64,000 bases of DNA from assembly GCA_964418665.1 (NCBI GenBank), contig CAYQLZ010000007.1, positions 29,886 to 93,885 on the forward strand, written 5' to 3'. Source of the DNA: an uncultured Dehalococcoidia bacterium. GTDB taxonomy: Bacteria > Chloroflexota > Dehalococcoidia > Lucifugimonadales > GCA-2712585. Of this stretch, positions 51,462-51,558 are shown one piece after another. The stretch's first letter is position 1. Every line of letters starts with the position of its first letter. The notes under the pieces were generated by a model, which was not told the DNA's origin, made no database searches, and saw only the letters and a list, made by a program, of their open reading frames with translations. The translations under genes were made by a program, and so were the position numbers.

Positions 51462-51558
51462 TGGCGGGAGTGGGAGGGAGTCGAACCCTCCCATCCCGGT
51501 TGTGACGGGATACAACGGATTTGAAGTCCGCAGGAGCCACCGGGCCCCATCCACTCCC
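51462..51558 (-). tRNA. selC: tRNA-Sec (anticodon UCA)
   Basis: The reverse complement gives GGGAGUGG-AU-GGGGCC-CGGU-GGCUCC-U-GCGGA-CUUCAAA-UCCGU-(long variable arm AUCCCG/CGGGAU)-GAGGG-UUCGACU-CCCUC-CCACUCCC-G-CCA. It has an 8-bp acceptor stem, a 6-bp D stem, a 5-bp T stem and a long extra arm, totals 97 nt and encodes its own CCA. This is the bacterial 8/5 tRNA-Sec architecture. Confidence 0.9.

Follow-up and report, generated by a model that had tools for sequence, protein, structure and literature searches.

A tRNA-Sec gene at 51462..51558

The gene at 51462..51558 on the minus strand of the window, by which we mean the whole 64 kb stretch of DNA that was analysed, is a 97-nt tRNA-Sec gene (selC), called by ARAGORN and by Rfam family RF01852, and supported by its fold and by covariation in a 16-sequence alignment. 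The original prediction, made by reading the letters, had placed a 97-nt minus-strand tRNA with the anticodon UCA in a CUUCAAA loop at this site, and ARAGORN, run over the entire window, returns the same coordinates and a single tRNA, tRNA-SeC with anticodon TCA. A cmscan search with Rfam 15 at gathering thresholds likewise gives one match in the window, RF01852 (tRNA-Sec) at 51558-51466, which covers the full model (positions 1-91) and scores 75.7 bits, above the tRNA-Sec gathering score of 47 (E = 9.8e-14), well outside anything expected by chance. The centroid fold shows an 8-bp acceptor stem followed by a 2-nt linker, a 6-bp D stem with one G.U pair and the 4-nt loop CGGU (GGGGCC/CGGU/GGCUCC), a 5-bp anticodon stem plus a U.U apposition at 27:43 with a 7-nt loop, CUUCAAA, that places the anticodon UCA at position 35, a 6-bp variable stem with a 7-nt loop, and a 5-bp T stem with the loop UUCGACU, which together with the acceptor stem forms the 13-bp acceptor branch of an 8/5 fold. 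The 3' end reads ...CUCCC-G-CCA, with discriminator G73 and an encoded CCA. The geometry that had been proposed for this tRNA (8/5 fold, 6-bp D stem with a 4-nt loop, long variable arm, encoded CCA) is recovered in every part, with both the 8-bp acceptor and the 6-bp D stem accommodated in one structure. Bacterial tRNA-Sec is defined by an 8/5 geometry with its 13-bp acceptor branch, by a D stem of 6 bp closing a 4-nt loop and by G73, and 93% of bacterial tRNA-Sec genes encode the CCA (PMC5330540). The Rfam consensus anticodon stem has 6 bp, in contrast to the 5 bp plus U.U at 27:43 found here.

A reference-genome collection was scanned with a pattern built on the anticodon arm and the T arm, yielding 120 loci, and ARAGORN calls a tRNA-SeC in 120 of 122 loci. 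The nearest tRNA-Sec genes belong to Dehalococcoidia, Chloroflexi and SAR202 MAGs; the best relatives are 86-88% identical to the window copy over all 97 nt (L122, L114, L109, L072, L032 and L065), and that of the SAR202 MAG L082 is 85.6% identical. These relatives make an uncultured member of the Dehalococcoidia, within the Chloroflexota, the most likely source of the window. In covariation alignment A1, which holds 16 tRNA-Sec sequences (14 distinct), the cloverleaf is paired in 89.3% of cells, with changes on both sides at 8 pairs, and the observed covariation score is reached by none of 500 shuffles. Compensatory changes are found at 6:90 (U-A to C-G), at 14:23 (G-C to U-G) and at 8:88 (G-C to A-U, in L065), the D helix is paired in 100% of cases over the 14 distinct sequences, and all 16 aligned sequences keep G73 and CCA without exception. 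Five of the six pairs of the variable stem show two-sided changes among relatives, in the arm that is the least reliably aligned part of the molecule. Most Dehalococcoidia/SAR202 relatives (L122, L114, L109, L072, L032, L082 and others) carry G.G at 8:88 and U.U at 72:86 in the T stem, whereas the window has G-C and A-U; because it has Watson-Crick pairs at both positions, the window tRNA-Sec is the most canonical of the group. The relatives with both mismatches may have a variant acceptor branch, and an 8/4 form with a bulge has been described in Chloroflexi (PMC5389517).

Not every tRNA of this general shape inserts selenocysteine. Look-alikes are known from anaerobic bacteria, namely selC*-type tRNA-Cys(UCA) and allo-tRNAs that would put Ser or Cys at UGA without selenium, and they have in common with tRNA-Sec a long variable arm, a long D stem with a tetraloop and, possibly, the anticodon UCA (PMC5389517). 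They differ in the discriminator, in the acceptor branch or in both: U73 goes with an 8/4 fold in selC* tRNA-Cys, and the allo-tRNA fold is either 8/4 or 9/3 (Mukai et al., PMC5389517), whereas the tRNA of the window combines G73 with a clean 8/5 fold and lies far above the tRNA-Sec gathering threshold. SECIS-type hairpins at the UGA sites described below would, moreover, be needless for a general suppressor. On the strength of G73 and the 8/5 fold we reject a selC* or allo-tRNA identity, to which we assign a negligible chance, and conclude, with a probability of about 0.95, that 51462..51558 is the functional selC (tRNA-Sec) gene of an uncultured Chloroflexota bacterium of the Dehalococcoidia/SAR202 type.

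Two redox genes of the window contain an in-frame UGA at the catalytic position

A coding-potential scan of all in-frame TGAs in the window, which also checked each predicted gene with a TGA end or with a TGA upstream of its start, reveals exactly two convincing in-frame-UGA genes. These are a peroxiredoxin and a rhodanese, so that the two UGA-containing redox genes expected from the original prediction are borne out by both the scan and translation. Both families, peroxiredoxin/Bcp with a TxxU motif and rhodanese-related sulfurtransferase with UxxG, are catalogued prokaryotic selenoprotein families (PMC9312934, PMC13188914). Neither protein reaches an NCBIfam equivalog cutoff. In both genes the Sec codon occupies the position of the catalytic Cys in homologues of solved structure, and a hairpin lies downstream of it.

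The first gene, at 35267..35734 on the minus strand, encodes an AhpE/BCP-type peroxiredoxin of 155 aa with the motif FTGGU (TxxU), as judged from coding potential, translation and Pfam (AhpC-TSA, 4.3e-36). Its frame runs from an ATG at 35734 to a TAA at 35267, and the sequence on either side of the UGA at 35597..35599 has coding potential. In the alignment this UGA occupies the site of the peroxidatic Cys of M. tuberculosis AhpE (FTGiC versus FTGgU). A putative SECIS hairpin at 35543..35587, on the same strand, begins 12 nt past the U of the UGA, and its minimum free energy of -21.8 kcal/mol (z = -3.96) is matched by 0 of 200 shuffles.

The second gene, at 42876..43706 on the plus strand, encodes a two-domain rhodanese/sulfurtransferase of 276 aa with the motif UQAG (UxxG), both domains being matched by Pfam Rhodanese (1.9e-33) in the translation. 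The in-frame UGA at 43578..43580 aligns with the catalytic Cys of the T. thermophilus rhodanese 1uar and of other sulfurtransferases. It is followed by a core SECIS hairpin at 43592..43606 (CCGUGC-GGC-GCACGG), assigned by fold and by nucleotide conservation; taken alone, this hairpin is thermodynamically ordinary (z = +0.49). Among 80 metagenome homologues, the residue at this site is Cys in 74 and TGA in three (L125, L126 and L159). In L125 and L126 the protein is approximately 41-43% identical to that of the window, yet the RNA 3' of the UGA (UGACAGGnnGGCAUCCGUGCGGCGCACGG) nearly matches the window and the core hairpin is nucleotide-identical in both, a conservation that fits the SECIS prediction and marks the hairpin as a SECIS.

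Several other candidates emerged from the same scan and were set aside. A candidate third UGA gene at 15870 is the stop of HicA followed by the start of HicB; the TPP-enzyme subunits from 16714 to 16811 and gcvT to gcvH from 40562 to 39410 are neighbouring genes that share a frame by chance; and motif matches at 7804 and 40985 lie on the strand opposite strong genes. A second rhodanese protein, at 60001-61584, has four rhodanese domains (527 aa); its TGA is an ordinary stop past which the protein does not continue, an RNase H-like ORF follows in the same frame, and this gene too was rejected as a UGA gene. Global reassignment of UGA is likewise rejected, with TGA serving as the stop of 14 of the 45 confident genes in the window.

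Pfam scans of essentially all window ORFs with coding potential detect no SelA, SelB (wing) or SelD (AIRS) domain, in keeping with the earlier statement that selA, selB and selD are missing from the window. Their absence from these 64 kb might be read as a sign that the tRNA-Sec gene is a decaying relic in a genome that no longer has the Sec trait, and that the two UGA genes are pseudogenes; bacteria commonly lose this trait (PMC1794560). Decay is, however, difficult to reconcile with stems that are all intact and with pairing at 8:88 and 72:86 that is better Watson-Crick than in the nearest relatives, with coding potential that runs on past both UGAs, or with conservation of the rhodanese UGA and SECIS at the nucleotide level. 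Two more contigs with the same trxA, from other sequencing runs, are also 100% identical to the window; strain variation beside selC is not seen, an uninformative result given the complete identity of both trxA-carrying contigs. We consider a relic extremely improbable and favour a functional selC with at least two client genes. Dehalococcoidia MAGs are among the most selenoprotein-rich bacteria, with 46-49 selenoprotein genes per genome (BSepDB, PMC13326102), and the presence of selC and two selenoprotein genes within 64 kb is therefore to be expected.

The trxA-selC linkage and its transcription

Directly upstream of selC lies trxA (51649..51978, minus strand), an ORF encoding a thioredoxin of 109 aa with the active site WCVPC, identified by Pfam PF00085 (3.9e-31) and by NCBIfam TIGR01068 (123.3 bits versus a cutoff of 96.8). 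It ends 90 nt from selC on the same strand, which agrees with the placement of selC directly downstream of a WCVPC thioredoxin in the original prediction. Of the loci compared, 15 from Chloroflexota have a trxA homologue (51-70% identity) 23-377 bp upstream of tRNA-Sec on the same strand, as against none of approximately 90 from other phyla; the adjacency in Chloroflexota is not accidental. The residue after the first Cys of the thioredoxin CxxC motif is normally an invariant Gly. Among the selC-linked thioredoxins, 12 loci have WCGPC, with WCVPC in L058 and the window, WCAPC in L065 and WCYPC in L029, and the choice of G, A, V or Y at this position may tune the redox potential of the selC-linked thioredoxin.

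How selC is transcribed appears to differ among these loci. In six relatives, the spacer from the trxA stop to the tRNA 5' end is 23-35 nt, the length typical of the Dehalococcoidia/SAR202 relatives, most of which have WCGPC; the window differs in having WCVPC and a 90-nt spacer with a hairpin. Since 23-35 nt is too short for a terminator plus a promoter, transcription of selC in these six must pass through trxA or begin within it. Five other loci (L007, L017, L083, L110 and L072) have an obvious terminator behind trxA, approximately 70 nt ahead of the tRNA, which implies that selC has a promoter of its own. The window arrangement is intermediate between both groups. A terminator-like scan and the sequence reveal an 11-bp hairpin with a T-run at 51574..51599 on the minus strand, and the T-run after the hairpin (51599-51574) stops 1 nt short of the tRNA 5' end. 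A promoter scan finds no selC promoter in the 90-nt spacer, in which weak hexamers only are visible by eye. Upstream of trxA, a consensus scan gives a sigma-70-like match, TTGACC-17-TACACT, at 52045..52073 on the minus strand, a candidate promoter of trxA that might also serve trxA-selC.

The window selC probably shares a transcript with trxA or starts from a promoter inside or just after that gene, although the case for co-transcription is clouded by the terminator-like hairpin and T-run that separate trxA from the tRNA. A further-reaching proposal, that in SAR202-like Dehalococcoidia tRNA-Sec is made on the trxA transcript and Sec decoding is co-regulated with the thiol-redox system through a dedicated thioredoxin, strikes us as quite unlikely. 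If true, it would tie Sec-decoding capacity to this system, by which Sec-peroxiredoxins are recycled and selenium compounds reduced, and the variable CxxC residue (G, A, V or Y) might tune the dedicated thioredoxin.

Gene order around selC

The block tatA-tatC-tatA/B-rlmD/maf-trxA-selC is common to the window (51462-55190), L032, L072 and L122. On the downstream side of selC, lutABC is found in the window, L114, L029 and L017, and is followed by a nucleotidyltransferase/HEPN pair in L114 and the window. In Dehalococcoidales-type loci (L026, L040, L043, L084, L096 and L103), tatC adjoins selC and there is no trxA. The rlmD/maf gene of the block, at 52120-53985, encodes a 621-aa protein in which an RlmD/TrmA-type (uracil-5) RNA methyltransferase is joined to a Maf nucleotide pyrophosphatase domain; the fusion is kept in L032, L072 and L122 (alignments of 586-597 residues).

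We found no description of trxA-selC or tat-rlmD/maf-trxA-selC linkage in the literature; the literature searched on SAR202 selenoproteins makes no mention of SAR202, and the words 'Chloroflexi' and 'Dehalococcoid' are absent from the ISME J 2016 survey. The clade-specific trxA-selC linkage is the sole element of this locus for which we found no description, and we regard it as mildly new.

The stretch between selC and lutA is 1.44 kb long in the window and contains a HigB-like toxin gene (51094-51375; Pfam HigB-like_toxin, 3.2e-16) and an HTH antitoxin gene (50794-51081; HTH_3, 1.9e-07), which together form a HigB/HigA pair at 50794..51375 on the minus strand, a truncated HicB-like ORF that covers Pfam profile positions 1-39 of 123, and an ORF of no assigned family. 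The gene selC is a classical integration site, and the genes at 50147-51375 (HigBA, the truncated HicB-like ORF and the unassigned ORF) could be the remnant of a mobile element integrated there. In accord with this idea, the selC-lutABC spacer varies in length and content among relatives, and that of the window carries toxin-antitoxin genes and a truncated HicB. A Dehalococcoidales MAG (L043) provides an att-like case, an exact duplicate of the 3' part of its tRNA-Sec, from the anticodon loop to just past CCA, lying in the same orientation 5.6 kb from the intact gene (the two copies lying at about 1390-1457 and 7010-7106). The window itself offers little to match it: no integrase domain is detected by Pfam in the scanned window ORFs, the 26-nt tRNA 3' end has no repeat in the window with up to 3 mismatches allowed, and there is no relevant direct repeat in 42-52 kb. 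The corresponding stretch in L114 (approximately 3 kb) holds a thiamine-diphosphate (acetolactate synthase-like) enzyme and that in L029 (approximately 1.3 kb) two small ORFs, one a membrane protein, all by eye and all ordinary in appearance, and the GC content of the 50-52 kb bin of the window (0.570) is just mildly below its surroundings. Lacking both an att-type repeat and an integrase, a genomic island at selC in the window is rejected, and we judge that the stretch is unlikely to be a mobile-element remnant.

Other features of the window

Elsewhere, the window is rich in toxin-antitoxin and defence-type modules, at 15436-16173, 31110-31487, 46175-46916 and 50592-51375. They include a HicA-like/HicB pair (HicA assigned by eye, with no Pfam match), a PaREP1-family ORF, HigB/HigA and the truncated HicB-like ORF, and a HEPN protein lies beside a putative nucleotidyltransferase ORF that has no Pfam match. 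Directly downstream of the Sec-rhodanese gene, the segment 43751-45729 has a low GC content (48% versus approximately 61%) and holds a 282-aa ORF with no Pfam or NCBIfam match and a D12-class N6-adenine DNA methyltransferase of 377 aa. The segment was probably gained by horizontal transfer as a restriction-modification-type module. Another restriction-modification-like pair may lie at 57393-59239, where a further D12-class adenine methyltransferase (57393-58130) has an overlapping or adjoining 406-aa ORF with no family match, and GC content at 58-60 kb is lowered to 54.5%. Two further ORFs with strong coding potential, 1524-2552 (342 aa) and 59305-59889 (194 aa), have no Pfam or NCBIfam match.

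Discussion

By analogy with the bacterial pathway, the selC transcript would mature to the 97-nt tRNA, to which SerRS, guided by G73 and the long variable arm, would attach serine; SelA, for which G73 is likewise a recognition element, would then convert the Ser form to Sec-tRNA-Sec with selenophosphate from SelD, and SelB would deliver it to an in-frame UGA followed by a SECIS hairpin. The clients in the window would number at least two, the Sec-peroxiredoxin and the Sec-rhodanese, with selA, selB and selD assumed to lie elsewhere in the genome.

The main value of these findings is for annotation, and they open no new question of selenium biology. They flag the genome as Sec-decoding, such that genes with an in-frame UGA are not to be annotated as truncated or as pseudogenes, and standard gene finders would mis-call both the peroxiredoxin and the rhodanese. 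They also add one more canonical 8/5 tRNA-Sec for the selenoprotein-rich Dehalococcoidia, supply the tat-rlmD/maf-trxA-selC block as a synteny marker for selC in the fragmented MAGs of this clade, and present trxA-selC as a testable case of a tRNA that is possibly co-transcribed with a redox gene.

Set beside known systems, the gene at 51462..51558 is canonical and departs in nothing from known biology. It resembles bacterial tRNA-Sec, as exemplified by Escherichia coli selC, in its UCA anticodon within CUUCAAA, 8+5 bp acceptor branch, 6-bp D stem with CGGU loop, long variable arm, G73 and CCA, and differs from it in a lineage-specific variable arm sequence and in having trxA, rather than sel genes, as the linked gene. 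The two clients compare in a similar way with catalogued selenoproteins. The peroxiredoxin shares with catalogued Bcp the TxxU motif at the catalytic residue, its nearest counterpart being the mycobacterial 1-Cys AhpE type, and the rhodanese has the same UxxG motif as the catalogued sulfurtransferase but is of the two-domain thiosulfate/3-mercaptopyruvate sulfurtransferase type, not a single-domain PspE.
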